Below are positions 7,838-43,514 of a DNA stretch of 64,000 nucleotides, piece after piece. Source of the DNA: Botryllus schlosseri (taxonomy: Eukaryota); contig CM119372.1 of the NCBI GenBank assembly GCA_051294905.1, forward strand, positions 21,144,001 to 21,208,000. The letters run 5' to 3'. The stretch's first letter is position 1. Each line of letters begins with the position of its first letter. The position numbers and the translations under genes were made by a program. The notes under the pieces were generated by a model. It was not told where the DNA came from, made no database searches, and saw nothing but the letters and a program-made list of their open reading frames with translations.

Positions 7838-8047
7838 TCATACACAGGTTTCAAGATAAGGGGCAGAATAATCCCCTAACCTGTTGTACACCTTGGGAGT
7901 AGTCTACCTCCCTGGTGGCTATGTCTGTTAAGTGTAAATGCCCTGCTCTTGCTAACCTTGCAGGGGTAGTGTCACCTTGTATATATTGTTATTGCTGCTG
8001 TATTGTCACTTGTATATAATGTAAGTAGTGTCGATGTCTCTTCCACT

Positions 8048-14401: not shown

Positions 14402-14946
14402 CTCTAAAGTCTAAATTATTTGTATCGTCAAAAAAGAAATTATTAAATTCATTGTGAAATTGCAAGGCTGACCAAAATTAGATTATTATGTTCGCGAAGA
14501 TTTGGATGTTTATGACTAAAATATCCATTCCGACGCATTGGTGTAGCCAGGGGTAGCTACCATAGGCGCCTACTTACGACTACGAGGTGGCACAGCCACC
14601 TCGTCACCATATTTGCGAGGTGGCGGCCACCTCGTACAAGATGCTCAAACGCCCAAGTGATTTGTGACCAGTAATTGGTAATCGGGCGAATTGATGCGAC
14701 CTCGTTAGAGACGTCTTCGACATCGATACGCGCTTGTGCCAGGCGCATAGCCACGGAGGTCGAACACCCGCCTCTATTTGAAACGCCAAACCCCGTCATT
14801 TTGAAATGAACATTTGAACTCTAATATTCAGTTGCAGTTCCATCAATGTGTTATTTGCGTTCCGCGCGGCCGATTTGCGAGAAACGTATTGTCAATCAAC
14901 GAGAAGAGTCTGTGATGATCTCCCGCTGAGATGGTAGCGAAATTAG

Positions 14947-15906: not shown

Positions 15907-16414
15907 GAAATTAGGTCATTCATTCCTGTGCGCGTGGCAATCGTCGATAGCCTGATTTGTCGCGTCTCGATCAGACCTGGTTCCGTTGGCTTGTACAATT
16001 GCACAATCGCATCTGCATTGGCGGCTTCGGCCTGGTGTGCACGATATCATCGTTGGCCTTCACAATAGCATCTGCAATAGACTTGTTGCGAAAGATATCA
16101 TTGCTGTTCTAACTATCGCGTCTCGGGCCTAGCATGCTTTGCCTAGGGTTGCCATACGTCCGGAATTTCACTGTTCAAACTTGCGTCCGGGAGGAAATTC
16201 TAAAATGTGCCTAAATGTCCGGAATTTTGAAGGCTTGAAGTTACATCGGTTATACCCTATGGTGCGGCCAAGATCAGTGCTTTTCTGGGCGGAAGGGGGC
16301 TGAAGAACTGTTGTTTCGGACCTGATTAAAACACACAGCCAGATAGCCGCACCGATTTAACAGTATATAGCAGGCCTGTCAAATACAATCCAGACACGGC
16401 CCGCCAGTCGATTT

Positions 16415-18832: not shown

Positions 18833-19211
18833 ATGAAAACGATCGTAATTCGTTCGCAGGGATTGTCAAAAGGTGCAAATTGAGCTATGCGAAAGGTGCC
18901 GAGCTTGATTCATATTGATGCATACCAGGAGGTATTCAATTTTCGACAGCATAAGCATTCGTCCGCATCATGGGATGAAAATGCGACACTAATCCTCTGT
19001 TTAATCGAACAGTACGTTTGAGAAAATATCGTGGTATGGCACACTCCCCCATATTACAGGGCCCGTAGTTTAGTCGAAGGGCAATACAGAGAAGTTGTAA
19101 AAAAGGATACTGTGTGAACACTTTGCGCGATTAGCAAACGTGAATAAAAAATATGGTGGTTCGTAAAAATGCCATATTGTGAGTAGTTATATAGATCGGT
19201 CGCGATTCGTA

Positions 19212-19445
19212 ATGGGCGCTTATGGGCGCGGTCGCATGCGGCTGGAAAACCGGGGGTGGCATGCGGCTCTTATTTCTTATGGGCGCGGTGGCATGCGGCT
19301 ATTGCGTCTTATGGGTGCGGTGGCAAGCGGCTCTTATGTCTTATGGCGGCGGTCGCAAGCGGCTGGGAAACCCGGGGTGGCAAGCGGCTCTTTTGTCTTA
19401 TGGCGGCGGTGGCATGCGGCTATTGTGTCTTGTGGTCGCACGGTA
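19212..19445. repeat. GC-rich ~31-bp subterminal tandem repeats of element A (mirror at ~42402-42635)
   Basis: Unit approximately TCTTATGGGCGCGGTGGCATGCGGCT(ATTGCG). Confidence 0.85.
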
Positions 19446-20122
19446 ACCCTTGTCAGCATAGGGATAGCTCGCACGCGGCTTCGTTGTTGGCATGTCGTAC
19501 TTCGTGTTGAATATGTATCAAGTAAATAGTCATGTGATTGGTCCTTAGGTAATGTGTATATTCCAAATTACGGCGAGTACGACAATGATATATCGTTATT
19601 CTTATGGACGCGGCGATGATTCGTACTTTCGAGTATCTCTCGCGCGGTGTTGAATATGTACGAGTCACCAACAATAACCGCGCGGACGGAAACGTGGTTT
19701 GTTGTGAGGATTAAGCAGTGCGTGCGACCTATATTTCGAATGACCTGTGCGCTGAATTATTTCTCGTCCAGCCGCTACTATCGATTATTACACTATTTCA
19801 TTCAGTGCGAAATAGTTTGCTAAATCTAGGAATCACTTCCAAGGTAATATTTTGGTAATTAGTTTACCGCAGAGCCAGCGTAGACGGCGATTCGAATATC
19901 AACAATAACCGCGTTCACAAACTAACACTTCAAAAATGTGTGAAATAGTTTGCAAAACCCCGCAATCGCTGACAAGATAACACATCAGGCATAGCCATCT
20001 CTCGTGGTGTGGATTTACAGAGGTAGGAATCACGCACAAGTAATAGTTTGTCACGGAGCCGGCGTAGACGGCGATTCGGTTACCAACAATCAGTAAGTCG
20101 CGAGTAGTGTAGTCGATCGCTC

Positions 20123-20360
20123 TGGGGGTGGCAGGGGCTCTTATGGGCGGGGTGGTGAGCGGCTGGAAAACCGGGGGTGGTGAGCGGCTCTTATTTCTTA
20201 TGGCGGGGGTGGTGAGCGGCTATTGCGTCTTATGGCGGGGGTGGTGAGCGGCTCTTATTTCTTATGGCGGGGGTCGTGAGCGGCTAGAAAACCGGGGGTG
20301 GTGAGCGGCTTTTATGTCTTATGGCGGGGGTCGTGAGCGGCTATTGTGTCTTGTGGTCGA
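20123..20360. repeat. GC-rich ~31-bp subterminal tandem repeats of element B (mirror at ~32841-33078)
   Basis: Unit approximately TCTTATGGCGGGGGTGGTGAGCGGCT(CTTATT). Confidence 0.85.
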
Positions 20361-21727
20361 ACGGTAACCCTTTTCAGTATAGGGATAGCTCGCACGCGGC
20401 TTCGTTGTTAGCATGTCGTACTTCGTGTTGAATATGTATCAAGTAAATAGTCATGTGATTGGTCCTTAGGTAACGTGTATATTCCAAATTACGGCGAGTA
20501 CGACATTGATATATCGTTATTCTTATGGATGCGGCGATGATTCGTACTTTCAGGCATCTCGCGACCGGTAACCCTTTTCGGTATATGAATCGCTCAACCG
20601 GTGCTAGTATAGCCATCTCTCGACCGGTAACCCTTTTCGGTATATGAATCGCTCAACCGGTGTCGCGGTGGTAATTCATACTTTCGGGTATATGCATCTC
20701 TCGACCGGTGTTGAATATGTATCAAGTAAATAGTCACGTGAATGAATCTTTGTTAATGTGTATATCGGGAAAACTCGCGGTCGTGACTCGCCTTTTTTGC
20801 TATAGGTGATCGCCGTTGTTTCTTATGGGTGCGCTCGCATGTCGCACTTTCAGGTATAGGCATCTCTCGCACATCGCAGACTCGCCATGTGTTCTTATGG
20901 GTGCCGCCGTGAATCGCCCTTTCGGTATAGACATCTCTCGCACGTCGTACTTTCGGGTATAGGCATCACTAAACAGGAAATTCACTAATCCGCAGCGCAT
21001 TGTGCGATTTTGAAAACCAGACGTTGGCGGTTGTATTTTGGACCTGTGTGACCCACTAAATACGTCCGTTTTGGAAATTCGGAGCGCGCACTATCGTATC
21101 GATTATTCCACTAATCCAGTCGGTGCTATTACGTTCGGCAGTATTCAGTATTCAGCAGCGTCACGAAAAGCGAGCAACAAATAACCGCGCTCGTAAATTG
21201 ACACTTCAAAAAGTGTAAAATAGATTGCAAATCCCGCGATCACTAACAAGATAATGTCTCGAACATAACCATTTTTAGTGACTTGGTGTTAAAGACATAC
21301 CGATCGCTCACAAGGTAATATTTCCGCAATAAGTTTGTCACAGAGCCGGCGCAGACGGTGATTCATAAACCAACAATTTGACACTTTCTGGTGGTCGCTA
21401 TATGTTTTGACACTTCGAACAGTGGCTGACTTTAGTTGCGCGATAAGAATTATGAGAATATTCAATCAATGTATCAATTTGCCAACTCGAAATGAAACTT
21501 ACTACACAGCTCAAGTTGATTCGTATCTGAATGTGTTAATTCGGTACAATTCTAATTATTTCGAGAAATCTTTTCGTGATCTTTTGATTCGACCGTAACT
21601 CGAATATTACTGACACCGACTTTCAGCCACATTGAATTATTCGCACACCAGCGCCGCTGTTTTCACAACTATAACTCTACAAGAATCAAGAATCACAAGT
21701 ATGTGCATTATACAGTTATTGTCTTTA

Positions 21728-22003
21728 TCAACACGAAATCAAACTCTTAACAAAAACACGCATCTTATCACTCGTCAACTCTATCATGAAAATCCTCGAG
21801 TCCTTATCATCAAAAATGTTATAGCGCGGCGTCGGAATCCATTCGTGGGATGTACTAAAGGTAAATCCAAATAATCCAGAATGAAATATTTGGACTTTGA
21901 CATTGTGTGAATTGAAATATGTTTGACAAACATGACTACCAACTTTCACCCAGTCACATTTCGAGATTATACGCACATTGATTTGAAACAAGTAATGAAA
22001 CAT
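21728..22003 (-). CDS. Hypothetical 91-aa element-encoded protein (identical mirror copy at 31198-31473 +)
   Basis: Element A carries a frameshifted homolog (~41060-41310 +) that keeps KCDWIKVGSHVC and SRIFMIELTSDKM. Confidence 0.35.
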   Translation of the reverse strand: MFHYLFQINVRIISKCDWVKVGSHVCQTYFNSHNVKVQIFHSGLFGFTFSTSHEWIPTPRYNIFDDKDSRIFMIELTSDKMRVFVKSLISC

Positions 22004-24699
22004 TACAACTCTATTCGCGACCTGTCTTTACGTTTGTCAAAGAGAGTTTCAGAAATATTATCACTATGACATCTCAACATTTTAACATCTCGCCATGCAC
22101 AAACGAGTAAAATACAAAAACCTTGGTAAGTCAATCCGTTTGTAACTCACCAAACCAAAACAAAAAGTGTCCGTATGAAAAGTAGACAAGACTACGCGAG
22201 TAATCACTACAACCCACAAACATACCAACTCAGTTGTATCCATATCCCATATTTTTTATTCAACTGCAAGATGAAGTAATTACTACTTGGCGCGCGGTTT
22301 GAGATTAACACATTACATTTGAGTATACGAGATTTGAATGTCTGACCAACGTAGTTGAGAATTCTTACAATCGAACGCAGGTGTTATATTGAAAATTTTC
22401 ACGAATTGACACATTGATTTTGACATATGAGATTTTGTAATAGTCGATCATGACTTGATTATTAAATTATGACAATATTAGACCAGGTTTGTGTTGAAGG
22501 TTATTACGATACCAACAAACTTTTCAGAAACATTGTTATTGACATATCGATTTGTAAAACTAGATTAACATATCTGAAATGTTTTGATTGGGAAGATTAA
22601 GCCGTGTTCGTAAAAACCACGCAGCGTATTGTGGAAATCAGGAAATAATTTACAAATGTAATTGTCTCCAGTAACCAAGACTAAAGATGAAACAACAATT
22701 TTCTTTGTTGAACAATAACCGGTACAATACTTTATCATCGTAATCAGCAGTGAGAAATGAAACACTTTCGCACATTATCCTGTGTCAAGATATCACACTA
22801 GGTGAATTGACATATCGCCGCTTGATTAATGCTTAATCCGTTCGCACCATTTCACATACTTTGATCATTACAAAAGTAAATTGGAATATGTTTGCTAGAT
22901 GCATTCAATTCAGTTAGAAATGTCTGGTGCACAACAATCGCAATATCAAAAAAGTACTTGCTACACTGTTATTTGCTAAACGTGTTTTGCATTGTTGTTC
23001 ATTTGTAGTATTGATTGTTCTTGAACCCTCAAATAATAATTCCCGACATGAAACCAAGCCACTGAAAGTCGTTACCATCACGAAGAAACAATGTGTACGA
23101 TGTTTGTCAAATGTATCCTACCTGGCCACCAGAAAACAATTTTCACTCAGTCGAAATGAAACCAATGTGACGGTCTCCATTCGATATTTTGTTTGTGTCA
23201 AATACTTAACAATGATCACATTTGAGTGGTTGAGCTTTACATCATCAAGCTGTTATTTGTAAATCAAGATTTCGGTAAACTTGTAAATGTATCGTTTAAC
23301 TAACCAACATTTAGTGATTGTTGAACATACGACTTCGAAATACTGCGTTGATCGTAATTTCCATCATCGTGATAATCGAAGTACATTTCTTTCGAATTCG
23401 TAACAACCGGCGTTTCTACGACATGATAAATTTTTGACAAGTTATGCTTAGAAGATTGGTTGCATATCGCGAAAAATAATATACCACTCATATTGATACT
23501 GTTACTCCATTGATCGATATTTTCAAACGAGTAAAATTTATTACTTGAGTTTCTCCGCTTAATGTAAATGCAAACTCAGCCGTCTTTTAACATCACAAAG
23601 GCATTGATAAAAAGTAAGCAATCAAACACAGCACTTTGTACGACGCTAATTATTGTTCCACACATCTCATTTCATACTAAGTGTATACGAAAGATATTCA
23701 TGTTACAGGAAAATATTCGCTCATGCTACAAACCTGTACGATGATTGGCGGTGTAAGTCCAGCACAATTGTGGTATCCATACGAGTTTAGTTAACACAAT
23801 TTACGACACCGAGGTCGCCTCATCTTTCGTAAGACAACAAACCAAGGCTTCAGGATATGTCCATGTCATAACAATAAATCAGCTACTCCAACAACAGAGT
23901 ACATATGTTTTCTAGCACGGTGCTTACATCTTACACACAAATCGACCTACTTTGCTAACGAAAAGTGCTGAGTCATCACATGGTTGTCATCACAACAATA
24001 ACAACTAAAACATACTATCATACAAAATGGCCGTTATAGTTTGCACACCAACGATACATCGTACAAGTAGCAAGTCTCGAGAATCCAGTTATTCAAAAAA
24101 CGTGAAAGTGTTTCTACGCCAAGTCGGTATGTTGACGAAAGCGTATATTGTAATATCATGATCGATTTACATTCGTTGGTCACAAAATGTCACTACTCTA
24201 AATAATTATTTTTCACTCAAAGCCTACTTGTCACCATTCGTTTCATCAAGCACGAGTTCAAGAAACCTGCTACGACATGAATTGTTATTTTTATGTTGTG
24301 TAAATAGGTAATAATTAATTTTAGTAACACTATATCAACATCATCGAGTTGCGCGAATAGATTTACATGTGGTCTTGTGGTTTTAATCGAAGTATACAGC
24401 ACGGTCTAATGTAGAGTCATCTCTATTGTACAGCAACTCGGAAATCGAAATGCATGCATTAACATTTAAACAGCGATCGCGTTTCGTGACGCGAAAAATA
24501 TGTTCACCACCGCGATACTCTGCACTGGGCGTGCAAATCCTTTTCACACTCGTAATAGTATACCAACGACTACCGGCGACAACGTTTAACAATACCAACG
24601 ACACTAAACATACGATACCTACCCAAGTAAAATTTCCATTTTCACCTGGAGGTCAGCCGTTACCTGACTAAAAATACCATTGTCCTTTGGAGATTTATC

Positions 24700-25370
24700 G
24701 TTTACCCAGTGTAACAATCCCCTTTTCACTTGGAAATCTATTTTTGCCCTGGATAACAAACCCCTTTTCACTTGGAAATCTATTTTTGCCCTGGATAACA
24801 AACCTTTTTCACTTGGAAATATATTTTTTCTCTTGGTAACAAACCTTTTTCACTTGGAAATATATTTTTTCTCTGGTTAACAAACCTTTTTCACTTGGAA
24901 ATATATTTTTTCTCTGGTTAACAAACCTTTTTCACTTGGAAATATATTTTTTCTCTGGTTAACAAACCTTTTTCACTTGGAAATATATTTTTTCTCTGGT
25001 TAACAAACCTTTTTTCACTTGGAAATATATTTTTTCTCTGGTTAACAAACCTTTTTCACTTGGAAATATATTTTTTCTCTGGGCAACAAACCTTTTTCCC
25101 CGAGTAACAAACCTTTTTCCCTGAGCAACAAGCCATTTTCACTTGGTGGGTCGTCGTTTACCTGAGTAAAAATATCATTTTCCTTTGGAGATCTGGCGTT
25201 TACCCAGTGTAACAATACATTTTCTCTTGGTCATCTAGCTTTTCCTAGAGTAACTAATCATTTCTCCTGGGTAACAAACCCTTTTCGTCTGGAAAACTAT
25301 CATTTACCCGAGTACCAATACCGTTTTCACTTGGAAATCTATCTTTTCCCTGGGTAACAATATCATTTTC
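24700..25370. repeat. 41-bp minisatellite in element B arm (mirror at ~27830-28500)
   Basis: Unit AACAAACCTTTTTCACTTGGAAATATATTTTTTCTCTGGTT at 41-bp period; the array degenerates at its edges. Confidence 0.9.
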
Positions 25371-26163
25371 GTTTTGAAAACTGACAACCACACCGGACAA
25401 TTTGATATTTTTGTATATTGTTACAACGGGTAGTGACAAAATATACACCAACAACGACTCCGATACATTTGTCTAATCAAATATTCACTTGCTCTGATGC
25501 ATCCCATCAAAATCATTGGTTACTCACATACAATAACAATGTGCTGTTGTACATCGACATGTATGTTTTCGGAATTGGCGAATAAAGGGGTTTCCGATAT
25601 GTCTGTGATGTCCGGGTTCGTGCTTTGGATTTTCCAGAGTCAAAATGTCTGAATAAAACACCTCCTTGACTTTGGTAACTGGTTGATACACGGATAATGG
25701 TGTTCGGAAAACGGATGAATTTATGTTTCCCATCGCGCTAATAACTCTGGGTTACTTGTGAGTTTCCTCAGGTCTGTTTACTATATTGTGTCTTTACTGG
25801 TCAATACATGTCGCTCCAGTCAGCTGCAACCGGATCACTAATATGAGAAAGTGTGTGGGCCTGATCCGGATATTCACTCATGAACCAACGACCAATATTC
25901 AAGTAAACATGTTACAGACCGTGTTTTGTCTCCATGAAAAATACCAATGCATACACCATCACATACAAGTAACGTCACGATTGTTCACAAGTATTCGCGT
26001 AAACGAGGTGTACATACAATGTGTCGGTGTACAAACATCATGGAAAACAAATTCATGTTCTCAAGTATCATCATGCGACGACTCTGTACATTCAATGTGG
26101 GCATAGAGGACTTGGAGACATGATACAATGGACAGTGCATTATGCATACCGATATATTCTCAG

Positions 26164-26439
26164 TCAAATATGCGAACCATACACAACCATATACCCTGAT
26201 TTTCGCTGAATATCCACAACACCAACAAATCTGTACATTTCTTTTCCCTTGACCTCGACGATAGAGTTGTCATCCCAATGTACCAATCGAGTGTATGGTT
26301 CATCAGGTGTAAAATCCAAATCAAATGTCACCAAGGTATCGTTTTTCATTTTCAATATTTCCACCGCTGCATCTTGTCTGTGTCGTAAAACCACGGTGTG
26401 GGGCCAGAGGAATCTATGGACAGTTACGCGTAGTCCCAT
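26164..26439 (-). CDS. Hypothetical 91-aa protein in the spacer of element B
   Basis: ATG-to-stop ORF; 44 of 69 residues identical, without gaps, to 39335-39550 (-) in element A, with many synonymous changes. Confidence 0.65.
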   Translation of the reverse strand: MGLRVTVHRFLWPHTVVLRHRQDAAVEILKMKNDTLVTFDLDFTPDEPYTRLVHWDDNSIVEVKGKEMYRFVGVVDIQRKSGYMVVYGSHI

Positions 26440-29400
26440 ATTTACTCGTGGATATGGTCAGGTAACGACAACGTTTTCTCAATGGGCTGTGTGGGTACAA
26501 CGTTTCAATACGTAGCTGGATCAACTAGACCAAAAGTTTCCAACCGCGATTTATGTTGACCTGTCGAGTTACGAGATAGCACCCTCTTGCGGTGTGATTA
26601 ACACGAAATCCACCTTCAGCTCGCAGAGACACACCCTGGATTACATTATCTAATCGTAATCGAACTCGAGATTCACACACACACACACAGAGTCCCTGTT
26701 TACGATTTCAATCCGGAGTCACTGCTCACGATGTTTAGCTGGAGTCGTTATGTGGGAGTAGCGACATCCGACATATTCATCGCGTGAAAGATTGATAACG
26801 GTGGTAATCACCAAATACATAAAACCAGGTGAAACACTGCGGTCTCAGCGAAAAAGTTAGCAGGTTATGACCAACGATACGCAGGGGTTGAGCGAGTTAC
26901 GCAACCCGATTAAGTCGAGGTCTGGATCACGATGCAAGTCTACATGAGAATCCGAAAAATCTTGCAAAATCAAGGTGTGAACCCGTGAAAGGGTTGTACT
27001 CGTGTGAGATTCATTTTTCACAAGTTGGGTTGAGGCGGCTCATACTAAGATCGTGTTACGTCCAAATATGGCTGCTTGTCTGTCCCCAAGTCATCTATGC
27101 CCACATTGAATGTACAGAGTCGTCGCATGATGATACTTGAGAACATGAATTTGTTTTCCATGATGTTTGTACACCGACATATTGTATGTACACCTCGTTT
27201 ACGCGAATACTTGTGAACAATCGTGACGTTACTTGTATGTGATGGTGTATGCATTGGTATTTTTCATGGAGACAAAACACGGTCTGTAACATGTTTACTT
27301 GAATATTGGTCGTTGGTTCATGAGTGAATATCCGGATCAGGCCCACACACTTTCTCATATTAGTGATCCGGTTGCAGCTGACTGGAGCGACATGTATTGA
27401 CCAGTAAAGACACAATATAGTAAACAGACCTGAGGAAACTCACAAGTAACCCAGAGTTATTAGCGCGATGGGAAACATAAATTCATCCGTTTTCCGAACA
27501 CCATTATCCGTGTATCAACCAGTTACCAAAGTCAAGGAGGTGTTTTATTCAGACATTTTGACTCTGGAAAATCCAAAGCACGAACCCGGACATCACAGAC
27601 ATATCGGAAACCCCTTTATTCGCCAATTCCGAAAACATACATGTCGATGTACAACAGCACATTGTTATTGTATGTGAGTAACCAATGATTTTGATGGGAT
27701 GCATCAGAGCAAGTGAATATTTGATTAGACAAATGTATCGGAGTCGTTGTTGGTGTATATTTTGTCACTACCCGTTGTAACAATATACAAAAATATCAAA
27801 TTGTCCGGTGTGGTTGTCAGTTTTCAAAACGAAAATGATATTGTTACCCAGGGAAAAGATAGATTTCCAAGTGAAAACGGTATTGGTACTCGGGTAAATG
27901 ATAGTTTTCCAGACGAAAAGGGTTTGTTACCCAGGAGAAATGATTAGTTACTCTAGGAAAAGCTAGATGACCAAGAGAAAATGTATTGTTACACTGGGTA
28001 AACGCCAGATCTCCAAAGGAAAATGATATTTTTACTCAGGTAAACGACGACCCACCAAGTGAAAATGGCTTGTTGCTCAGGGAAAAAGGTTTGTTACTCG
28101 GGGAAAAAGGTTTGTTGCCCAGAGAAAAAATATATTTCCAAGTGAAAAAGGTTTGTTAACCAGAGAAAAAATATATTTCCAAGTGAAAAAAGGTTTGTTA
28201 ACCAGAGAAAAAATATATTTCCAAGTGAAAAAGGTTTGTTAACCAGAGAAAAAATATATTTCCAAGTGAAAAAGGTTTGTTAACCAGAGAAAAAATATAT
28301 TTCCAAGTGAAAAAGGTTTGTTAACCAGAGAAAAAATATATTTCCAAGTGAAAAAGGTTTGTTACCAAGAGAAAAAATATATTTCCAAGTGAAAAAGGTT
28401 TGTTATCCAGGGCAAAAATAGATTTCCAAGTGAAAAGGGGTTTGTTATCCAGGGCAAAAATAGATTTCCAAGTGAAAAGGGGATTGTTACACTGGGTAAA
28501 CGATAAATCTCCAAAGGACAATGGTATTTTTAGTCAGGTAACGGCTGACCTCCAGGTGAAAATGGAAATTTTACTTGGGTAGGTATCGTATGTTTAGTGT
28601 CGTTGGTATTGTTAAACGTTGTCGCCGGTAGTCGTTGGTATACTATTACGAGTGTGAAAAGGATTTGCACGCCCAGTGCAGAGTATCGCGGTGGTGAACA
28701 TATTTTTCGCGTCACGAAACGCGATCGCTGTTTAAATGTTAATGCATGCATTTCGATTTCCGAGTTGCTGTACAATAGAGATGACTCTACATTAGACCGT
28801 GCTGTATACTTCGATTAAAACCACAAGACCACATGTAAATCTATTCGCGCAACTCGATGATGTTGATATAGTGTTACTAAAATTAATTATTACCTATTTA
28901 CACAACATAAAAATAACAATTCATGTCGTAGCAGGTTTCTTGAACTCGTGCTTGATGAAACGAATGGTGACAAGTAGGCTTTGAGTGAAAAATAATTATT
29001 TAGAGTAGTGACATTTTGTGACCAACGAATGTAAATCGATCATGATATTACAATATACGCTTTCGTCAACATACCGACTTGGCGTAGAAACACTTTCACG
29101 TTTTTTGAATAACTGGATTCTCGAGACTTGCTACTTGTACGATGTATCGTTGGTGTGCAAACTATAACGGCCATTTTGTATGATAGTATGTTTTAGTTGT
29201 TATTGTTGTGATGACAACCATGTGATGACTCAGCACTTTTCGTTAGCAAAGTAGGTCGATTTGTGTGTAAGATGTAAGCACCGTGCTAGAAAACATATGT
29301 ACTCTGTTGTTGGAGTAGCTGATTTATTGTTATGACATGGACATATCCTGAAGCCTTGGTTTGTTGTCTTACGAAAGATGAGGCGACCTCGGTGTCGTAA

Positions 29401-32400
29401 ATTGTGTTAACTAAACTCGTATGGATACCACAATTGTGCTGGACTTACACCGCCAATCATCGTACAGGTTTGTAGCATGAGCGAATATTTTCCTGTAACA
29501 TGAATATCTTTCGTATACACTTAGTATGAAATGAGATGTGTGGAACAATAATTAGCGTCGTACAAAGTGCTGTGTTTGATTGCTTACTTTTTATCAATGC
29601 CTTTGTGATGTTAAAAGACGGCTGAGTTTGCATTTACATTAAGCGGAGAAACTCAAGTAATAAATTTTACTCGTTTGAAAATATCGATCAATGGAGTAAC
29701 AGTATCAATATGAGTGGTATATTATTTTTCGCGATATGCAACCAATCTTCTAAGCATAACTTGTCAAAAATTTATCATGTCGTAGAAACGCCGGTTGTTA
29801 CGAATTCGAAAGAAATGTACTTCGATTATCACGATGATGGAAATTACGATCAACGCAGTATTTCGAAGTCGTATGTTCAACAATCACTAAATGTTGGTTA
29901 GTTAAACGATACATTTACAAGTTTACCGAAATCTTGATTTACAAATAACAGCTTGATGATGTAAAGCTCAACCACTCAAATGTGATCATTGTTAAGTATT
30001 TGACACAAACAAAATATCGAATGGAGACCGTCACATTGGTTTCATTTCGACTGAGTGAAAATTGTTTTCTGGTGGCCAGGTAGGATACATTTGACAAACA
30101 TCGTACACATTGTTTCTTCGTGATGGTAACGACTTTCAGTGGCTTGGTTTCATGTCGGGAATTATTATTTGAGGGTTCAAGAACAATCAATACTACAAAT
30201 GAACAACAATGCAAAACACGTTTAGCAAATAACAGTGTAGCAAGTACTTTTTTGATATTGCGATTGTTGTGCACCAGACATTTCTAACTGAATTGAATGC
30301 ATCTAGCAAACATATTCCAATTTACTTTTGTAATGATCAAAGTATGTGAAATGGTGCGAACGGATTAAGCATTAATCAAGCGGCGATATGTCAATTCACC
30401 TAGTGTGATATCTTGACACAGGATAATGTGCGAAAGTGTTTCATTTCTCACTGCTGATTACGATGATAAAGTATTGTACCGGTTATTGTTCAACAAAGAA
30501 AATTGTTGTTTCATCTTTAGTCTTGGTTACTGGAGACAATTACATTTGTAAATTATTTCCTGATTTCCACAATACGCTGCGTGGTTTTTACGAACACGGC
30601 TTAATCTTCCCAATCAAAACATTTCAGATATGTTAATCTAGTTTTACAAATCGATATGTCAATAACAATGTTTCTGAAAAGTTTGTTGGTATCGTAATAA
30701 CCTTCAACACAAACCTGGTCTAATATTGTCATAATTTAATAATCAAGTCATGATCGACTATTACAAAATCTCATATGTCAAAATCAATGTGTCAATTCGT
30801 GAAAATTTTCAATATAACACCTGCGTTCGATTGTAAGAATTCTCAACTACGTTGGTCAGACATTCAAATCTCGTATACTCAAATGTAATGTGTTAATCTC
30901 AAACCGCGCGCCAAGTAGTAATTACTTCATCTTGCAGTTGAATAAAAAATATGGGATATGGATACAACTGAGTTGGTATGTTTGTGGGTTGTAGTGATTA
31001 CTCGCGTAGTCTTGTCTACTTTTCATACGGACACTTTTTGTTTTGGTTTGGTGAGTTACAAACGGATTGACTTACCAAGGTTTTTGTATTTTACTCGTTT
31101 GTGCATGGCGAGATGTTAAAATGTTGAGATGTCATAGTGATAATATTTCTGAAACTCTCTTTGACAAACGTAAAGACAGGTCGCGAATAGAGTTGTAATG
31201 TTTCATTACTTGTTTCAAATCAATGTGCGTATAATCTCGAAATGTGACTGGGTGAAAGTTGGTAGTCATGTTTGTCAAACATATTTCAATTCACACAATG
31301 TCAAAGTCCAAATATTTCATTCTGGATTATTTGGATTTACCTTTAGTACATCCCACGAATGGATTCCGACGCCGCGCTATAACATTTTTGATGATAAGGA
31401 CTCGAGGATTTTCATGATAGAGTTGACGAGTGATAAGATGCGTGTTTTTGTTAAGAGTTTGATTTCGTGTTGATAAAGACAATAACTGTATAATGCACAT
31501 ACTTGTGATTCTTGATTCTTGTAGAGTTATAGTTGTGAAAACAGCGGCGCTGGTGTGCGAATAATTCAATGTGGCTGAAAGTCGGTGTCAGTAATATTCG
31601 AGTTACGGTCGAATCAAAAGATCACGAAAAGATTTCTCGAAATAATTAGAATTGTACCGAATTAACACATTCAGATACGAATCAACTTGAGCTGTGTAGT
31701 AAGTTTCATTTCGAGTTGGCAAATTGATACATTGATTGAATATTCTCATAATTCTTATCGCGCAACTAAAGTCAGCCACTGTTCGAAGTGTCAAAACATA
31801 TAGCGACCACCAGAAAGTGTCAAATTGTTGGTTTATGAATCACCGTCTGCGCCGGCTCTGTGACAAACTTATTGCGGAAATATTACCTTGTGAGCGATCG
31901 GTATGTCTTTAACACCAAGTCACTAAAAATGGTTATGTTCGAGACATTATCTTGTTAGTGATCGCGGGATTTGCAATCTATTTTACACTTTTTGAAGTGT
32001 CAATTTACGAGCGCGGTTATTTGTTGCTCGCTTTTCGTGACGCTGCTGAATACTGAATACTGCCGAACGTAATAGCACCGACTGGATTAGTGGAATAATC
32101 GATACGATAGTGCGCGCTCCGAATTTCCAAAACGGACGTATTTAGTGGGTCACACAGGTCCAAAATACAACCGCCAACGTCTGGTTTTCAAAATCGCACA
32201 ATGCGCTGCGGATTAGTGAATTTCCTGTTTAGTGATGCCTATACCCGAAAGTACGACGTGCGAGAGATGTCTATACCGAAAGGGCGATTCACGGCGGCAC
32301 CCATAAGAACACATGGCGAGTCTGCGATGTGCGAGAGATGCCTATACCTGAAAGTGCGACATGCGAGCGCACCCATAAGAAACAACGGCGATCACCTATA

Positions 32401-35400
32401 GCAAAAAAGGCGAGTCACGACCGCGAGTTTTCCCGATATACACATTAACAAAGATTCATTCACGTGACTATTTACTTGATACATATTCAACACCGGTCGA
32501 GAGATGCATATACCCGAAAGTATGAATTACCACCGCGACACCGGTTGAGCGATTCATATACCGAAAAGGGTTACCGGTCGAGAGATGGCTATACTAGCAC
32601 CGGTTGAGCGATTCATATACCGAAAAGGGTTACCGGTCGCGAGATGCCTGAAAGTACGAATCATCGCCGCATCCATAAGAATAACGATATATCAATGTCG
32701 TACTCGCCGTAATTTGGAATATACACGTTACCTAAGGACCAATCACATGACTATTTACTTGATACATATTCAACACGAAGTACGACATGCTAACAACGAA
32801 GCCGCGTGCGAGCTATCCCTATACTGAAAAGGGTTACCGTTCGACCACAAGACACAATAGCCGCTCACGACCCCCGCCATAAGACATAAAAGCCGCTCAC
32901 CACCCCCGGTTTTCTAGCCGCTCACGACCCCCGCCATAAGAAATAAGAGCCGCTCACCACCCCCGCCATAAGACGCAATAGCCGCTCACCACCCCCGCCA
33001 TAAGAAATAAGAGCCGCTCACCACCCCCGGTTTTCCAGCCGCTCACCACCCCGCCCATAAGAGCCCCTGCCACCCCCAGAGCGATCGACTACACTACTGT
33101 CGCGAAACTGGATTTCACTGGTAAGATTTAATAAGTAACGAATAACAGAGCCATCGCAGACGGTGATTCGAAAACCAACAATTTGACACTTTCTGGTGGT
33201 CGCTATATGCTTTGACACTTCGGAACGTGGTTGACTTTAGTTGTATGATAAGAATATACAAGTAATGTGTCAATTTGTCAACTTGAAATGAAACTTACTA
33301 CACAAACCGAGTTGATTCGTATTTGAATGTGTTAATTCGGTACAATTCTAATTATTTTGAGAAATCTTTTTAACGTGATCTTGTGAATCGTACGTAACCT
33401 GAATATTACCGACACCGACTTTCAGCCGCATCGAATTATTCACACATTCCACGCCGCTGTTTCACACCTATAGAATCAATGCCAACTAGTTGTATGAAAA
33501 TCAAGAATCACAAGTATGCACATATAATAATTGTATTCATTATTGAGAAATCAAACCCTTAACAAAAACTCACATCTTATCACTTGTCAACTCTATCATG
33601 AAAATCCTCGAACCCGTATTATTAAGAATGTTATAAAACGGCGTCAGAAATCCACTCGCGAGATGTACTAAAGGTAAATCCAGATAATCCTAAATGAAAT
33701 ATTTGGACCTTGACAAACATGACTACCAACTTTGATCCAGTCACATTTCAAGATCATACTTTGAAACAATCCTTGAAACTTACAACTCTATTCACGACTT
33801 AGTTTTCCGTTTATCAAATAGAGTTTCAGCAAATACTATCGCGATATTTTAATGTGTTACTACACACAATAGAATCAATCAATGAAATAGCACCTGTTGT
33901 AAATATTTTTAACTTGACAACCACTTGTGCATACCGCGATCGACTTGTGACGCGATGAGTTAAATCGTAAATCGGAATATTTCAATCTATTTGTCGAAAC
34001 CTTGAACAAACTATCAGGTTATTTTTTTTTTTGTTGTAATCGAGTGAACGGAAATAGTATTACGTCTCAACATTTTAACATCTTCCCATACACAAAAGAG
34101 TAAAATACAAAAAAAGCCCTGTCAAGTCAATCCGTTTGTAACTTACCCAACCAAAGCAAAAAGTATCCTTATGAAAAGTAGACAAGACTACGCGAGTAAT
34201 CACCACAATCCAAAATCCATAGCAAGTTCGGTTGTAGTCATATACCACCAAATCGTCTTTTTATTTGTTCAACTGTAAAAGTCGTTACTATTCTGTAAGA
34301 TAAAGTAATTACTACTCGGTATATTTTATAAACCAAAGTAAATACTACTCGGTGTGTGGTTTGAGATTAACATATTACATTTGAGTATACCCGATTTGAA
34401 TGTCTGACCAACGTAGTTGAGAATTCATTTCTTACAATCAAACGCCGGTGTTACATTGAAAGGTATCATACTGTAAACATAAGGATTGACACATTGATTA
34501 TTAAATTATTCACGATAATTAGACCCGGTGTTGTGGTAAAGGTTATTAGAAAATATCACTTTTAGCATCGAGTACCAGTCGAAGTGGGTGAACAATACTT
34601 AATCCTTTCAGTGACTCGCTGTTGTACGTGCTAAATGTAAAACATTACGAGGTTAAACTCTAAGACTTTGATCAGCACAAGAGCAATTTGGACTATATTT
34701 TCTGGCTACAACCTATTCTATTAGACAAAACTCGAAGCATTAATAAAATCGAAATATGTGCTACACTGAAATCTACAAAATGTGTTCGTATTGTTACTAG
34801 TAGTGATCATGCATTATCATTTGAATCTTCTAAAGTAATTGTAATGATAAAACCAAACTACTCAAAGTCATTACCAACACAAAAAACGATTTCTATGATA
34901 TTCATCAAACGCATCATACCTCAGTATGCAGAAATTATTTGTAGAGTGCATACCAACAAAGAAATCAGGAACACAACCAACACCGAAAATGATAAATGCG
35001 TTTCGTGCTACTATTGATACAAGTTCATTTCTATCAGGTGAAATAAACGCCATCACAAAACTCGGAGCATGCAAAGGTCTTGATTGATATGAATTTCGAT
35101 TTGTGTCTTATGATACCAGCAAGCATTTTAGAAATATTATGATTCGTTAAACCAAAGTCGTATGTCCGATTATTAATTGATTGGAAACTTGATCACGTAC
35201 CTCGATCATTACAGAAGATTATAACACCATTGTCCGACAATCTTTTACAAAAGGATCGAAACCTAGTAACCCAAAGTCGTTGCCGTCGCATAAACAATTT
35301 GTACGACGTTTGATAAATGTACCCTATACTTTGGTGTACTAGAAATATTTGTAAAACACACTCTGGTAAAGAAATCGAAAAGATATCCTACACCTAAATC

Positions 35401-36728
35401 TGATAAAACCATTTTGCACTTTTTGGACGTCAGTAGTATCCATTTGAATTTTTCCATTTCCTCTCGTCAAAGTAGATGTAATCATAGTCGCTAAAGAACT
35501 TACTTGGATGTGTTTGAATTCTAGACATAGTTATGATTTACTCGACGCAAGACCCAAGAACAACCGTAGTTTACAACCGTGCACACATATCCAAAATATC
35601 GCACACTCCGCTATTCCTAAAGTACAAACACCCGATACAAAATATTACTTGTTGTGTTGTTGCGGCATCATCTTCACAATATCACCATTTTGTTTGTGTC
35701 AATTAGTTACTTTGTATGTTTCCCCACAACTCTTACAAATGTACGAAGGATATTAACATCACACTAAGTAATTAACTTTACTCGATATTCTCGCATTACG
35801 AAACTAAAGAATGATTGGTTAGACTCTACAAACTGTTTCGATATCACAAGACCTTTATTGTCTGAATGGGTGTTCATGTATCTTAATAATCAAATAGTTC
35901 AACACAGAACTAGTACTAACAGAAACATCAGAGTTGTTTACACAAAAGTTTGTATATGTGCACAGTATGCGAATACCATGTGTAAGTCCAGCACAATTGC
36001 GGTATCCATCCGAGTTTAGTTAACACAAATTTATTACAACGGAGTCACGTAAACTTTCGCGAAAGAAAAGCATACTCACTCCTAGAGGGTTATGTCAATG
36101 CCATAGCAGTTCCCCAACAACAAAGTACATATGTTTTCTAGTCACGGTCCTTACATCTTTCACATAGATCAATCTACTTTGCTAACGAAAAGTGCTGAGT
36201 CATCACATGATCGCTCTCACAACAAAACAGCTAGTAGATATTATCATTCAAAATATTCCTAACCCTTTACACACCAGTAACAAATCATACAACGAATATG
36301 TTTTGTGGGTCGAATTGTTGTTCAGTGTCAAGTCTACCTGTTGAAACGTACATTAAAACAACACAATCACAATCAAATTAAAACCACGAATCTATTTTCA
36401 TTTCCTCGCAAACTGTCACATACAGAAAAATAAATTTAAGTTCCCAAAACATACTTGTAACCAATCGCTTTCATTAAACACACAACACTATAATAGTATT
36501 TACTTTCTACAACATAGACATTCCGGTGTAGTCAAGAAATATTTTTAATAATCAAAATCATCGACTTCTGTTTACGGTGTTAGTGTGTGCATGTCATATA
36601 TGTGGGCCCGTATTAAAATGGACACGACACGACTGACTGTAAGGAGATAGAAGTCTATCGCATAAATTTACATGTGGTCTTCGCTACGGTTTCAAAAAAC
36701 GAATCATCTATTTTGCATTGATCTAGAC

Positions 36729-37749
36729 CAGGGGTGGGCAAACTTTTGAGCTCGCGGGCCGCATTCAACATCTGAATCCATTCGCGGGCCGCACTATATA
36801 AAATTGGGATTATAAACCAAAATGCAATATTGGTATTGGTGTTGGTATGTCACAACTATAGAGATGAAAGTCGGTTGTCCCGATTCTTAGAACAGGATTT
36901 AAATTTAAATCTGTTAGCAGCGATCTGTTCATAGATTTACTAATTCCACTTTTGATTCGGTTCCAGGACACACAATGCTGACAGCATCATACCCATGGTA
37001 GATTCAAACACGCTTCTACTGTTTGCAGATAAAATATAACTACCCCAATTCTACGCATAGAACGAATCCATAAGCACATCACTAAAATAGTTAAAACTGG
37101 AGAGACGAATCTGAAATCACACTCGTGATCAGAATTATGTCAATCTCGTTTAGGATTTCTGTTATTTTTAGCAGTTAAAACCTTTCAAACTCTGCGGGCC
37201 TTGAGACGGTCGCGCCAGAAATTAAACATAAAACTAATATAGGAAATAGATACCTTAGAACAGTGGATCTCAAACTTTTTAAGACACGCTCTCTTGTGAT
37301 GGTGAACGATTTCACGCCACTTATCGTCATATCGCAAAACGCAACCAGGATGCTATAGAAACCGTAACAGATAATTTGATGGCATTAAAGGGTATACGAC
37401 TGTGGATGAGAGATTTTTAGATACGAAATTCAGACTAAATACAAAGCTAAAATTAGGAATTAGGTGTGAATCGCGCGGAGCGCGAAATTTTTTTTCAGTT
37501 GAGCTGATCTTCGCCCCCCATTCAGATGCTTTCACGCCCTCAAGGGGGCACGCCCCCCAGTTTGAGAACCACTGCCTTAGAATTATGATGGTGAAATATA
37601 CCAAAAAGTTTAATTAGTCCCTGCATTAATTCGATATTTAGTACGCATTTCATCAATATTTTTAATAAGTTTATTTAGACTCTCGCGGGCCGCACAAAAC
37701 GGTGTTGCGGGCCGCATGCGGCCCGCGGGCCGTAGTTTGCCCACCCCTG
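36729..37749. mobile_element. hAT Charlie-like MITE in the spacer of element A
   Basis: TIRs CAGGGGTGGGCAAACT / AGTTTGCCCACCCCTG; TSD ATCTAGAC. Confidence 0.92.
37261..37574. mobile_element. 314-bp hAT MITE nested in the previous MITE
   Basis: TIRs CAGTGGATCTCAAACT / AGTTTGAGAACCACTG; TSD CCTTAGAA. Confidence 0.9.
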
Positions 37750-38069
37750 ATCTAGACCGAGCAAGTTAGTTAATGGCCATGATTGTGTTTGTCATATGCG
37801 AATGATAGGGTTACTGTCAAATCTACATACAACAATCTTCTGACGATCATAATAGCAATTTCATTTTCCACCCCTTCATAATTGTACAACTCGGTAACTA
37901 CGTTTAACAAGACCAATCACACTACCAGCGTTGAACACAAGATACCTACCCAAGTAAAAATATCATTCTAGTTTGGACAACTGACGTTTACCTGTGTAAA
38001 ATTAGCATTTTCACTTGGAGGTCCACTGTTACCTAACTAAAATACCATTGTCCTTTGGAGATTTATCGT

Positions 38070-38470
38070 TTACCCAGTGTAACAATCCCCTTTTCCTTTG
38101 GAAATCTATTTTTTCCCTGGGTAACAAACCTTTTTCACTTGCAAATATATTTTTTCTCTTGGTAACAAACCTTTTTCACTTGGAAATATATTTTTTCTCT
38201 GGGTAACAAACCTTTTTCTCTTGGAAATATATTTTTTCTCTGGGTAACAAACCTTTTTCACTTGGAAATATTTTTTTCCCTGAGCAACAAACCTTTTTCA
38301 CTTGGGAATATATTTTTTCCCTGAGCAACAAACCATTTTCACATGGTGGGTCGTCGTTATACTTAGTAAAAATATCATTTTCCTTTGGAGATCCGGCGTT
38401 TACCAGTGTAACAATACATTTTCTCTTGGTCATCTAGCTTTTCCTAGAGTAACAAAACCATTTTCATTTT
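38070..38470. repeat. Shorter copy of the 41-bp minisatellite in element A spacer
   Basis: Same unit and flanks as 24700-25370, with fewer units. Confidence 0.85.
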
Positions 38471-39334
38471 GAAATCTGACAAACACACCTGACAATTTGG
38501 TATTTGTTGTATTGACGATACTTTGAAATAGATTACAACGAACAGTGACGGAAATATACACGGACTACCGGTTTCAGAGTATACCCCCATCAGTCGTATC
38601 ACATCAATATCATCGGTTAACCACATACAATATGCTCTTGTCCACCGAAATGTATGTTTTGGAAAATTGGACAATATGCTTCGATAGTTCTGTGATGTCC
38701 GGGTTCGTGCTTTGGATTTTCCAGAGTCAAAATGTCTGAATAAAACACCTCCTCGACGATGGTTGGTATGTGGATAACGGGATTCAAAAAACGGTTGGAT
38801 TTATGTCACCCATCGCGATAACAATTCCAGGTCGAGTTTTCCCCCGCATGTTTACTATATTGTGTCTTTATTGGTCAATGTATGTCTCGACATTCAGTTT
38901 GAAATCGGAAACCCTGATAAAGTATGTAATCGGATCCGGATATCAACTCTGAATCGATAAACCAATGAACAATATTCAAAGTAAACATGTTACACCCCGT
39001 GTTTCCACGAAAAAATACCATCCAGGCATACGTCGCGCTTGTTTGCCCACAACAGTATACGCGTAAATGGAGGTGTGTAACATTGCATGCAATGTGTTGG
39101 TATACAAACATCGGGGAGTAAGCCTTCGATCGACAGACATTATCATAGCCGGAATTTTGATACAGATCGAATGTCATCAAGCACACCCGATAACAATGTC
39201 ATACCAATAAGCCACATTGCAATGACTCTGAGTCAATCTGAAGCATGACATACAGACGCACAAACATGGAACCGTAACATGGGTTATTCGCACGACGGCG
39301 AAAGTGAACTGTACAGCATATATCAATAGAGCGT

Positions 39335-39553
39335 TCACAGTCGAATATGCGAGCCATGCACAATCATATACCCAGATTTTCGTTGGATATGTACGAAACC
39401 AATAAATCGATACATTTCTGTTCCTTCTACGTCAATAATACAAGCGGCATTCCAATGCATCGCTCGAATGTAAGGTTCGTCTGGTGTAAAATCCATGTCA
39501 AATAACACCATAGTGTGCCTTCCGTGTTTTATTATTTCCACCGTCGCATCTCC
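39335..39553 (-). pseudogene. Homolog of ORF 26164-26439, 5'-truncated by the arm junction of element A
   Basis: DATVEIIK...FDMDFTPDEPY...EMYRFIGFVHIQRKSGYMIVHGSHI; homology stops at the arm boundary (39554). Confidence 0.65.
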
Positions 39554-42500
39554 ATCCTTTTGTAAAAGATTGTCGGACAATGGTGTTATAATCTTCTGTA
39601 ATGATCGAGGTACGTGATCAAGTTTCCAATCAATTAATAATTGGACATACGACTTTGGTTTAACGAATCATAATATTTCTAAAATGCTTGCTGGTATCAT
39701 AAGACACAAATCGAAATTCATATCAATCAAGACCTTTGCATGCTCCGAGTTTTGTGATGGCGTTTATTTCACCTGATAGAAATGAACTTGTATCAATAGT
39801 AGCACGAAACGCATTTATCATTTTCGGTGTTGGTTGTGTTCCTGATTTCTTTGTTGGTATGCACTCTACAAATAATTTCTGCATACTGAGGTATGATGCG
39901 TTTGATGAATATCATAGAAATCGTTTTTTGTGTTGGTAATGACTTTGAGTAGTTTGGTTTTATCATTACAATTACTTTAGAAGATTCAAATGATAATGCA
40001 TGATCACTACTAGTAACAATACGAACACATTTTGTAGATTTCAGTGTAGCACATATTTCGATTTTATTAATGCTTCGAGTTTTGTCTAATAGAATAGGTT
40101 GTAGCCAGAAAATATAGTCCAAATTGCTCTTGTGCTGATCAAAGTCTTAGAGTTTAACCTCGTAATGTTTTACATTTAGCACGTACAACAGCGAGTCACT
40201 GAAAGGATTAAGTATTGTTCACCCACTTCGACTGGTACTCGATGCTAAAAGTGATATTTTCTAATAACCTTTACCACAACACCGGGTCTAATTATCGTGA
40301 ATAATTTAATAATCAAGTCGTGGTCGAACATTACAAAATCTCATATATCAAATCAATGTGTCAATCCTTATGTTTACAGTATGATACCTTTCAATGTAAC
40401 ACCGGCGTTTGATTGTAAGAAATGAATTCTCAACTACGTTGGTCAGACATTCAAATCGGGTATACTCAAATGTAATATGTTAATCTCAAACCACACACCG
40501 AGTAGTATTTACTTTGGTTTATAAAATATACCGAGTAGTAATTACTTTATCTTACAGAATAGTAACGACTTTTACAGTTGAACAAATAAAAAGACGATTT
40601 GGTGGTATATGACTACAACCGAACTTGCTATGGATTTTGGATTGTGGTGATTACTCGCGTAGTCTTGTCTACTTTTCATAAGGATACTTTTTGCTTTGGT
40701 TGGGTAAGTTACAAACGGATTGACTTGACAGGGCTTTTTTTGTATTTTACTCTTTTGTGTATGGGAAGATGTTAAAATGTTGAGACGTAATACTATTTCC
40801 GTTCACTCGATTACAACAAAAAAAAAATAACCTGATAGTTTGTTCAAGGTTTCGACAAATAGATTGAAATATTCCGATTTACGATTTAACTCATCGCGTC
40901 ACAAGTCGATCGCGGTATGCACAAGTGGTTGTCAAGTTAGAAATATTTACAACAGGTGCTATTTCATTGATTGATTCTATTGTGTGTAGTAACACATTAA
41001 AATATCGCGATAGTATTTGCTGAAACTCTATTTGATAAACGGAAAACTAAGTCGTGAATAGAGTTGTAAGTTTCAAGGATTGTTTCAAAGTATGATCTTG
41101 AAATGTGACTGGATCAAAGTTGGTAGTCATGTTTGTCAAGGTCCAAATATTTCATTTAGGATTATCTAGATTTACCTTTAGTACATCTCGCGAGTGGATT
41201 TCTGACGCCGTTTTATAACATTCTTAATAATACGGGTTCGAGGATTTTCATGATAGAGTTGACAAGTGATAAGATGTGAGTTTTTGTTAAGGGTTTGATT
41301 TCTCAATAATGAATACAATTATTATATGTGCATACTTGTGATTCTTGATTTTCATACAACTAGTTGGCATTGATTCTATAGGTGTGAAACAGCGGCGTGG
41401 AATGTGTGAATAATTCGATGCGGCTGAAAGTCGGTGTCGGTAATATTCAGGTTACGTACGATTCACAAGATCACGTTAAAAAGATTTCTCAAAATAATTA
41501 GAATTGTACCGAATTAACACATTCAAATACGAATCAACTCGGTTTGTGTAGTAAGTTTCATTTCAAGTTGACAAATTGACACATTACTTGTATATTCTTA
41601 TCATACAACTAAAGTCAACCACGTTCCGAAGTGTCAAAGCATATAGCGACCACCAGAAAGTGTCAAATTGTTGGTTTTCGAATCACCGTCTGCGATGGCT
41701 CTGTTATTCGTTACTTATTAAATCTTACCAGTGAAATCCAGTTTCGCGACTTACTGATTGTTGGTAACCGAATCGCCGTCTACGCCGGCTCCGTGACAAA
41801 CTATTACTTGTGCGTGATTCCTACCTCTGTAAATCCACACCACGAGAGATGGCTATGCCTGATGTGTTATCTTGTCAGCGATTGCGGGGTTTTGCAAACT
41901 ATTTCACACATTTTTGAAGTGTTAGTTTGTGAACGCGGTTATTGTTGATATTCGAATCGCCGTCTACGCTGGCTCTGCGGTAAACTAATTACCAAAATAT
42001 TACCTTGGAAGTGATTCCTAGATTTAGCAAACTATTTCGCACTGAATGAAATAGTGTAATAATCGATAGTAGCGGCTGGACGAGAAATAATTCAGCGCAC
42101 AGGTCATTCGAAATATAGGTCGCACGCACTGCTTAATCCTCACAACAAACCACGTTTCCGTCCGCGCGGTTATTGTTGGTGACTCGTACATATTCAACAC
42201 CGCGCGAGAGATACTCGAAAGTACGAATCATCGCCGCGTCCATAAGAATAACGATATATCATTGTCGTACTCGCCGTAATTTGGAATATACACATTACCT
42301 AAGGACCAATCACATGACTATTTACTTGATACATATTCAACACGAAGTACGACATGCCAACAACGAAGCCGCGTGCGAGCTATCCCTATGCTGACAAGGG
42401 TTACCGTGCGACCACAAGACACAATAGCCGCATGCCACCGCCGCCATAAGACAAAAGAGCCGCTTGCCACCCCGGGTTTCCCAGCCGCTTGCGACCGCCG

Positions 42501-43514
42501 CCATAAGACATAAGAGCCGCTTGCCACCGCACCCATAAGACGCAATAGCCGCATGCCACCGCGCCCATAAGAAATAAGAGCCGCATGCCACCCCCGGTTT
42601 TCCAGCCGCATGCGACCGCGCCCATAAGCGCCCATTACGAATCGCGACCGATCTATATAACTACTATTGTGTAGCTTTATTTCCGGAAATTAAAGGCATT
42701 ACTACACTTGCTTTTATATTTCAACATGATGTATGTTATCCACACAAAAGAACTGATATCAAATAGAACTCAAAGTATATGATACTTGGAATAGAAAGTG
42801 AAATATATAAATACTACTTCTAAAAGCGGAAAATGTGTTTCATGTCTTTAGTCCAGAAAGTTTCAAAGGTGGTATGCTAAAACAGCTCTAAACCTAAAAA
42901 AAGTCAGAGTCCACTTTTCCAGATTAGGACTGCTAGATAACGATATGATAATTAAATGCTAGATTGCGAAACATCAGTCTCAAACATTATGATGAGCCAT
43001 ATATGCTGTGATGAAATATTTCATGGGCGACGGGCGACAATGCGGTGTGAACAAAACCACGTCAACCCGCTACCTAAACTATATTCACCGATACTTTCGT
43101 GAAATCATACTGGTTACTCCGTATCCACTGAGCGCGAAGCGCGACGAAAATTCCGGGCGTTATTGAACTTTTATGAATATTAAATGTTGATACTCCTTGA
43201 AAACAGCCCCGAAATTCCTCAGGCTATCTTCCTGATTGGAGGATCAAACTACTTCTTCTTGACAAACTGAAAATGGCGAAAAGTAAGTAAGTAGATCAAA
43301 TTTTTTTTTGTTTGTAATACTTTTTCGGCATGAATTTATGGAAATGAAAAATGCACTACGAATAAATATAATCGCGACTTCGGTCGCTACTTCTACAAAG
43401 TAGAAGTGGCGAAAACCGGATCTACTTGAGTAAGTACCCCAAGAGATGAAAACTACTTGAGTACTTCGAAAAAGTAGAAGTACTTCGTTACTGACCACCT
43501 CTCCATATGGCGCC

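Follow-up and report, generated by a model that had tools for sequence, protein, structure and literature searches.

What kind of gene is retained in the loop of a giant palindrome that carries no other recognisable gene? This question is raised by a small ORF at 26164..26439 (-) of the window, i.e. the whole 64-kb stretch of DNA that was analysed. The ORF is intact, runs from ATG to TGA and encodes 91 amino acids. It is the sole recognisable gene of element B (20103..33098), a palindromic Polinton derivative of 12,996 bp with the ends AGTAGT...ACTACT. The left arm of B (20103..26120 (+), 6,018 bp) matches the right arm (27081..33098 (-)) with 3 mismatches and no gaps, and the two arms enclose a spacer of 960 bp (26121..27080), the loop, which contains the gene. 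B is bordered by the target-site duplication GTCGCG at 20097..20102 (+) and 33099..33104 (+). It was inserted into the left arm of a second element, A (19182..42665, about 10.5 kb without B), and the empty target site can be read within the uninterrupted right arm of A, where GTCGCG occurs in single copy. Like B, A starts with AGTAGT, ends with ACTACT and has a 6-bp target duplication (ATTGTG, 19176-19181 and 42666-42671). Its left arm continues behind B at 33105..39234 (+), and its right arm (39551..42665 (-)) is shortened.

A second copy of the gene lies in element A at 39335..39550 (-). It comprises the last 71 codons and the stop and is truncated at the 5' end. The homology ends exactly at the edge of the right arm (39551), which begins at the gene's cut point, and the first ~22 codons including the start are absent. 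The stretch 35260-39234 is unpaired because the inner right arm is absent in the window copy of A; in the siblings L033, L042, L209 and L216 this part is present in both arms. A full ORF of 91-93 aa is found in 29 of the 30 top sibling A loci, the sole exception being the window copy. Since sibling A elements have the full ORF as well as the inner arm on both sides, the window A must have lost the start of the gene and about 4 kb of its right arm. The preliminary description had presented the protein as conserved between elements A and B; this applies to the aligned codons, which are under constraint, but the A copy of the window is a truncated remnant.

Apart from the gene, the elements are poor in coding information. 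No stop-to-stop frame longer than 123 aa occurs within 19182-42665, and polymerase, integrase, ATPase, protease and capsid genes were found in neither A nor B. Coding matches to the intact Polinton family P3 are limited to a remnant of the 3' end of its protease gene at 21687..21760 (-), 77% by comparison with L108, L109 and L114. The B arm contains 41-42-bp tandem arrays (24723..25382), which are also present in A at 37947-38475. Further arrays common to A and B, with units of 32/57 bp, are located at 19255-19435 and 20125-20356, and those at the termini are found in P3 ends too. Mutual nesting is frequent: besides 20103-33098 in A, it was seen in L130 and L150, at C1:16768420-16810257 and at C1:40804931-40836115. 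It may reflect target preference or tolerance.

The ORF at 26164-26439 (-) aligns without gaps over 69 codons with 39344-39550 (-). A recount gave the same figures as reported before, i.e. 44 of 69 identical residues, 15 of them with a synonymous codon change. Differences at codon positions 1/2/3 amount to 20/10/24, and four methods yielded dN/dS values of 0.29, 0.40, 0.35 and 0.34. In both copies, each of the remaining five frames has 1-4 stops within the 69-codon alignment. In the tblastx list of homologous A-B blocks, the gene is the only long stop-free one with a clear second-position deficit, and a comparable coding pattern was not seen in the other listed blocks. The selection signal goes back to the divergence of the A and B lineages and does not stem from these two copies.

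The gene belongs to a large family. Each of four protein searches of the own genome gave about 1,100-1,200 first-look candidate loci, of which 150 were scored per search; these totals are counts of candidates, not copy numbers. The top-150 lists are biased to intact copies (149/150 stop-free) and were kept out of the selection tests. A divergent query retrieved further subfamilies with 46-73% identity to the B protein. The family comprises six or more subfamilies, with identities as low as 46%, and an unrooted tree of 26 rows contains two supported groups. Among the loci returned, long arms flank the gene on both sides in 30/30 B-type and 28/30 A-type loci. In the C, D and E types the gene is often found in both arms of other palindromes.

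A search for a tight end pattern found 318 forward and 324 reverse matches in the genome and 0 in the control. From the first 100 of these 642 ends listed, we picked 30 elements with paired ends on C1-C2, a sample that omits ends already known as autonomous, unpaired or nested. Two of the 30 are autonomous; 23 of the 28 others carry the gene, which is intact in 19 of the 23. In the stretch read, the gene is missing in the remaining five (L202, L208, L211, L214 and L215), four of which still have long arms. Since these non-autonomous elements lack it, the gene is not essential for spreading. Arm-arm identity within one copy is mostly 98-100%, whereas the arm identity between copies has a median of 86% (78 comparisons). 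Being near-identical within copies and diverged between them, the arms appear to be re-equalised at each copying.

Selection was quantified by codon-model likelihood grids. For 11 copies, one per lineage, omega was 0.3 (0.25-0.4; 2dL 89 against 1); it rose to 0.4 with 25 representatives and to 0.5 with 18 end-picked intact copies. For 15 end-picked A copies omega was 0.75-0.8 (0.5-1.0; 2dL 1.3), which is not different from 1. In this young A family the 27 positions that are constrained in other subfamilies show no deficit of amino-acid changes: 8/26 private and 7/23 shared changes fall on constrained positions, where 30% are expected. When 17 end-picked A copies, including 3 broken ones, were compared, the 273-nt ORF had 2 indel events, both private, versus 45 in the 780-nt flank (p=1e-4), a flank count that is possibly inflated by alignment or mosaicism. 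Subfamilies were thus clearly constrained relative to one another, whereas in the youngest expansion tested the constraint on the amino-acid sequence is weak or absent. The gene is therefore real, as the preliminary description had proposed, with omega at about 0.3 between subfamilies. Its expectation of a dN/dS well below 1 across all copies held at this level, but the young A family is indistinguishable from neutral at the amino-acid level. Frequent frameshifts, named there as a counterindication, were not seen: they are rare in the young A family.

A passively captured host exon had been considered too. Each subfamily has its own start and stop, and every locus with flanks that were read sits in elements. 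No longer relative of the gene was found among 6,683 candidates, which the tool itself notes as weak evidence. We therefore rejected this origin.

The next issue is how elements without replication genes are copied. The genome contains several intact Polinton families, among which P3 makes up 83 of the 150 scored ATPase rows. Its polymerase was recognised as PF03175 (E 1e-7), and ATPase and integrase frames are present as well. A genome-wide PF03175 search found nothing although the polymerase exists, so that family searches in this genome evidently miss things. P3 is enclosed by A/B-type ends: its outer ~450-650 bp are shared with A and B at 87-95% identity, the shared part amounting to ~630 bp in the left arm of B, and a subterminal stretch as well as the last 74 bp of the protease gene are also shared. 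The ends of P1 and P2, compared with those of A/B, gave no match beyond shuffles. Because A and B contain the outer ends of P3 together with the protease tail, they resemble a single P3 end that was copied back onto itself. A hybrid element (G000:C1:38196562-38211497; L107+L093+L108) joins a 6.3-kb A-type arm to the right half of P3, with the polymerase tail, ATPase, integrase, capsid genes and protease in this order, and thus indicates exchange between satellite and helper. From the common ends, the fresh duplications and this one hybrid we infer that A and B would be mobilised in trans by P3. The D and E types have ends of the P4 family type, and the ATPases of the two helpers, of P3-type and P4-type satellites, are only ~51% identical.

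It is important to note that the gene was found in polymerase-less derivatives only. HMM scans of polymerase-bearing stretches of P1, P2, P3, P4 and P5 gave nothing above 9.5 bits, with controls at 150-156. These scans covered two copies of P1, one of P2, the ends of three P3 copies and the middles of five others, three left ends and 14 polymerase regions of P4, and one left end and three polymerase regions of P5; they were made in pieces with gaps, the right ends of intact P4 and P5 lying outside. When ATPase loci were sorted by the gene, all 16 sampled loci without a listed gene match nearby had upstream polymerase homology over almost the whole length, and the 3/3 loci with the gene nearby keep at most the last ~110 polymerase codons. 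The gene may thus be satellite-specific: its carriers are polymerase-less and mostly palindromic, and no copy was seen in those complete Polintons that were checked. The earlier designation as a Polinton accessory or cargo gene stands insofar as the carriers have Polinton ends (AGTAGT...ACTACT) and 6-bp duplications, but not for polymerase-bearing Polintons.

Polymerase-deleted Polintons that keep ATPase and integrase were observed at L157/L158, L167/L168 and L154/L188; of these, the two that were read far enough also keep capsid and protease genes. Read from the P4 left end, L157 and L168 carry gene X, BIR, the small gene, a divergently oriented Bcl-2, the polymerase tail, the ATPase, the integrase, the capsid genes and the protease, in this order. 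Here, the small gene adjoins the BIR gene (PF00653, E 2e-18) and stands head-to-head with the Bcl-2 gene (PF00452, E 1e-20). X and BIR are present at intact P4 left ends, from which the small gene is absent. Both arms of the E-type element that was read contain an intact copy of the small gene, whereas X and Bcl-2 are fragments there; A and B themselves have no Bcl-2 neighbourhood. Cargo in Polintons of this genome includes Bcl-2, BIR/IAP, a ubiquitin-conjugating gene (PF00179, E 2e-48) and the unnamed gene X, at the loci L071, L072, L075, L157, L168 and L248-L251. A literature search gave no paper that joins Polinton, Bcl-2 and inhibitor of apoptosis.

At the protein level, 17 columns are invariant across 26 sequences down to 46% identity, and R9, K30, R70 and K80 are invariant or near-invariant. 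No catalytic motif was recognised in the proteins. With these 26 sequences AlphaFold2 gave one confident all-beta model with nine predicted strands (pLDDT 80.5, pTM 0.72), in agreement with the surmise of a probably beta-rich product; the five models have pLDDT values of 80.5, 62.3, 52.0, 51.1 and 49.3, and an earlier fold from 14 sequences reached 38. HSP20/CS sandwiches (for HSP20, Z 4.0-4.8 and rmsd 2.9-3.8 across 55-66 residues), AMIN domains and vaccinia A46-N (Z 4.1 and rmsd 2.0 across 51 residues) head the structural rows, all with Z<5, a range that the program itself rates as uninformative. AMIN was also matched, with TM 0.55-0.57, by an Atlas model of P0011 obtained independently. These best rows of the predicted model are protein-binding sandwiches, a likeness of arrangement that does not imply homology.

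Foldseek against PDB and viral structures returned nothing at E<=0.001; there were no sequence matches in Pfam, PHROGs, PDB sequences or the ESM Atlas by features, and no relatives in JGI metagenomes and IMG/VR. The only database relatives are six short-contig proteins, all falling within the family, and a 5-sequence profile run against 1.84 billion representatives retrieved its own cluster and one WD40-like repeat protein, which is noise. As far as sequence comparison reaches, relatives outside this lineage were not found, and the family appears to be unnamed.

The indexed runs included no RNA data set recorded as carrying the sequence. RNA reads were inspected in three runs, read to 3-6%, which placed 35, 139 and 101 reads on 25400-27080. 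Over the ORF the coverage was at most 4.7x per strand, without splice joints. A one-strand pile of up to 44x at 25457-25684 consists largely of partial matches from related families. Under this pile sits a non-coding block (25585-25694 in B, 38672-38781 in A) that is ~88% identical between the A and B arms and is possibly a cis-element or a transcript end.

What, then, does the gene do? Because it is kept by elements without replication genes of their own, it must have paid off for the carrying element. One family occurs on satellites of two distant helpers and, in one lineage, in the company of Bcl-2 and BIR, which makes a host target the simplest guess. Our best reading of the sequence data is therefore worded tentatively, with a likelihood somewhat short of even: the gene would encode a satellite-borne, host-directed adaptor. 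The elements would have arisen as copy-back or snap-back products of a Polinton end; the helper's polymerase would copy them through a fold-back intermediate, by which the arms are re-equalised, and the helper's integrase would insert them. The putative fold-back intermediate is based on the replication models for Polintons and adenoviruses. The product, a ~10.5-kDa non-enzymatic beta-sandwich according to the model, might bind a host protein and, as a guess, weaken the death or sensing response of a cell in which the satellite is copying itself. Giant hairpins could pose this problem more than the helper does. Selection would have acted mainly in subfamily-founding lineages, and integrated young copies would largely drift.

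A different target is the helper itself. The protein could bind the helper's polymerase, packaging ATPase or capsid and bias copying or packaging to the satellite, which we consider rather unlikely. The restriction of the gene to polymerase-less elements would fit, as would the element length, which stays near that of the helper though no coding content was recognised in the arms: the median is 13.7 kb (13.4-14.1) for 18 gene-bearing palindromes picked by their ends and 16.6 kb for five P3 copies, a ratio of 0.83 that comes from a pre-selected 12-14.2-kb class, longer and shorter elements being present as well. Such a ratio would be consistent with a packaging size floor, as in the adenovirus rule. 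However, one conserved protein would need to recognise helpers that are ~50% diverged, the protein resembles no Polinton ORF read (best E 0.17), and the Bcl-2/BIR neighbourhood points to the host. An unlikely role, in our judgement, is that of a basic beta protein binding nucleic acids, either to protect the single-stranded loop or hairpin or to counter silencing at the tandem arrays in the arms. The pI of 7.9-10.5 in 24 of the 26 aligned proteins (7.0 and 7.2 in the other two), the 10-15 K/R and the conserved R9, K30, R70 and K80 agree with it, but the B protein has a net charge of zero, and an OB-fold or PC4-like row is absent from the top 50 structural rows.

The gene might also be a former accessory gene, selected in a lost or unsampled autonomous or exogenous Polinton, which is mostly a passenger now and survives by its chance position in the copied region; this seems improbable. 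The neutral-like amino-acid evolution in the young A family, the truncated copy in the window, the 5/28 elements without the gene and the presence in autonomous elements of every other viral cargo gene found (Bcl-2, BIR, UBC) speak for a passenger. Against it, the gene is intact in at least six subfamilies with two end types while its neighbours decay, the frameshifts are private only, and the A, B and P0004-like lineages, in which every copy examined sits in a palindrome loop, diverged under constraint. Very improbable is a derivation from a degenerate piece of the Polinton packaging ATPase or from a captured host small heat-shock protein. A single BLASTP pair linked the protein to the P3 ATPase (27% over 79 aa, E 2e-5), but the profile-profile probability is 1.7%, 8/150 column shuffles score as high, and the all-beta model lacks a P-loop and is unlike the alpha/beta fold of an A32-like ATPase. 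Similarly, HSP20/CS sandwiches make up most top structural rows, the topology of the alpha-crystallin-type sandwich is a weak match (Z up to 4.8), and the Pfam model CS_DNAAF11_C touches 5/26 members (best E 0.011). None of the 26 members matches the HSP20 profile (PF00011), and hhalign against seven host HSP20 domains gave 0.16%, a score reached by 79/150 column shuffles.

Non-autonomous DNA transposons normally lose their genes because the products act in trans. A constrained gene in polymerase-less Polinton derivatives therefore implies selection on the individual element, which is simplest if copies replicate extrachromosomally or enter cells singly in particles. Whether animal Polintons form virions, and whether they are parasitised in turn, is a question on which this finding bears, and the protein offers a small, soluble, high-copy handle for it. 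As a possibility that we regard as doubtful, the palindromes could represent a germline-fixed, gene-bearing satellite virus of Polintons, with copy-back genomes that stuffer arms keep close to capsid size and that the helper packages; one satellite-specific protein of a new family, moved between the satellites of different helpers, would then solve the problem of a hairpin replicon, with the same degree of doubt. If true, animals would have an equivalent of phage satellites, placed one step below the Polinton. Phage P4/PICI satellites and the anti-silencing of plant VANDAL elements are cases of dependent elements that keep a small gene of their own serving their spread; the parallel would be a functional analogy, with no relation in sequence or structure.

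Comparison with known systems places the elements close to Polintons. Mavericks/Polintons have (AGT)2//(ACT)2 ends, a 6-bp target duplication and 12.7-24.6 kb (PMC8097293; PMC6431247), and vertebrate Mavericks have inverted repeats of 46-1,447 bp (PMC8097293). The A/B ends, the 6-bp duplication, the 13-kb size and accessory ORFs near the ends are alike (PMC8097293), and the outer arms resemble those of P3 of the same genome. In contrast, A and B lack the core genes, B has inverted repeats of 6 kb, and the one orphan gene has an omega of 0.3 versus ~0.001 for core genes. Copy-back or snap-back defective viral genomes are similar in that one end is reverse-copied to a near-complete palindrome that depends on a helper; the snap-back form is described as non-coding, with examples from RNA viruses (PMC13506859), whereas here the palindromes are DNA, fixed in the genome in hundreds of copies, and have a ~1-kb loop with a constrained gene. 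HSP20-like sandwiches, AMIN and A46-N share the small all-beta sandwich, without reaching Z 5 and without sequence support. A precedent for apoptosis-type cargo is reported for giant planarian retrotransposons (PMC6431247). The literature search, which covered titles and abstract starts outside Repbase, supplements and subscription papers, found no description of the gene or of palindromic gene-bearing Polinton satellites. The gene is a genuine orphan, and its carrier a new form of non-autonomous Polinton.

The window contains several other features. A Gypsy-like LTR retrotransposon with split gag-pol frames occupies 2080-8213, its motifs being what we take to be Gypsy-like gag-pol. A host BCCIP exon (PF13862, E 8e-6) lies at 44867-45223 (-). 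The ORF at 53697-54023 (-) is presumably a piece of a P-element-type transposase, and that at 62977-63438 (+) resembles, we assume, a non-LTR retrotransposon endonuclease. Finally, 14941-15913 and 58108-59090 form an inverted 1-kb repeat of 82% identity, which is also present in L075.
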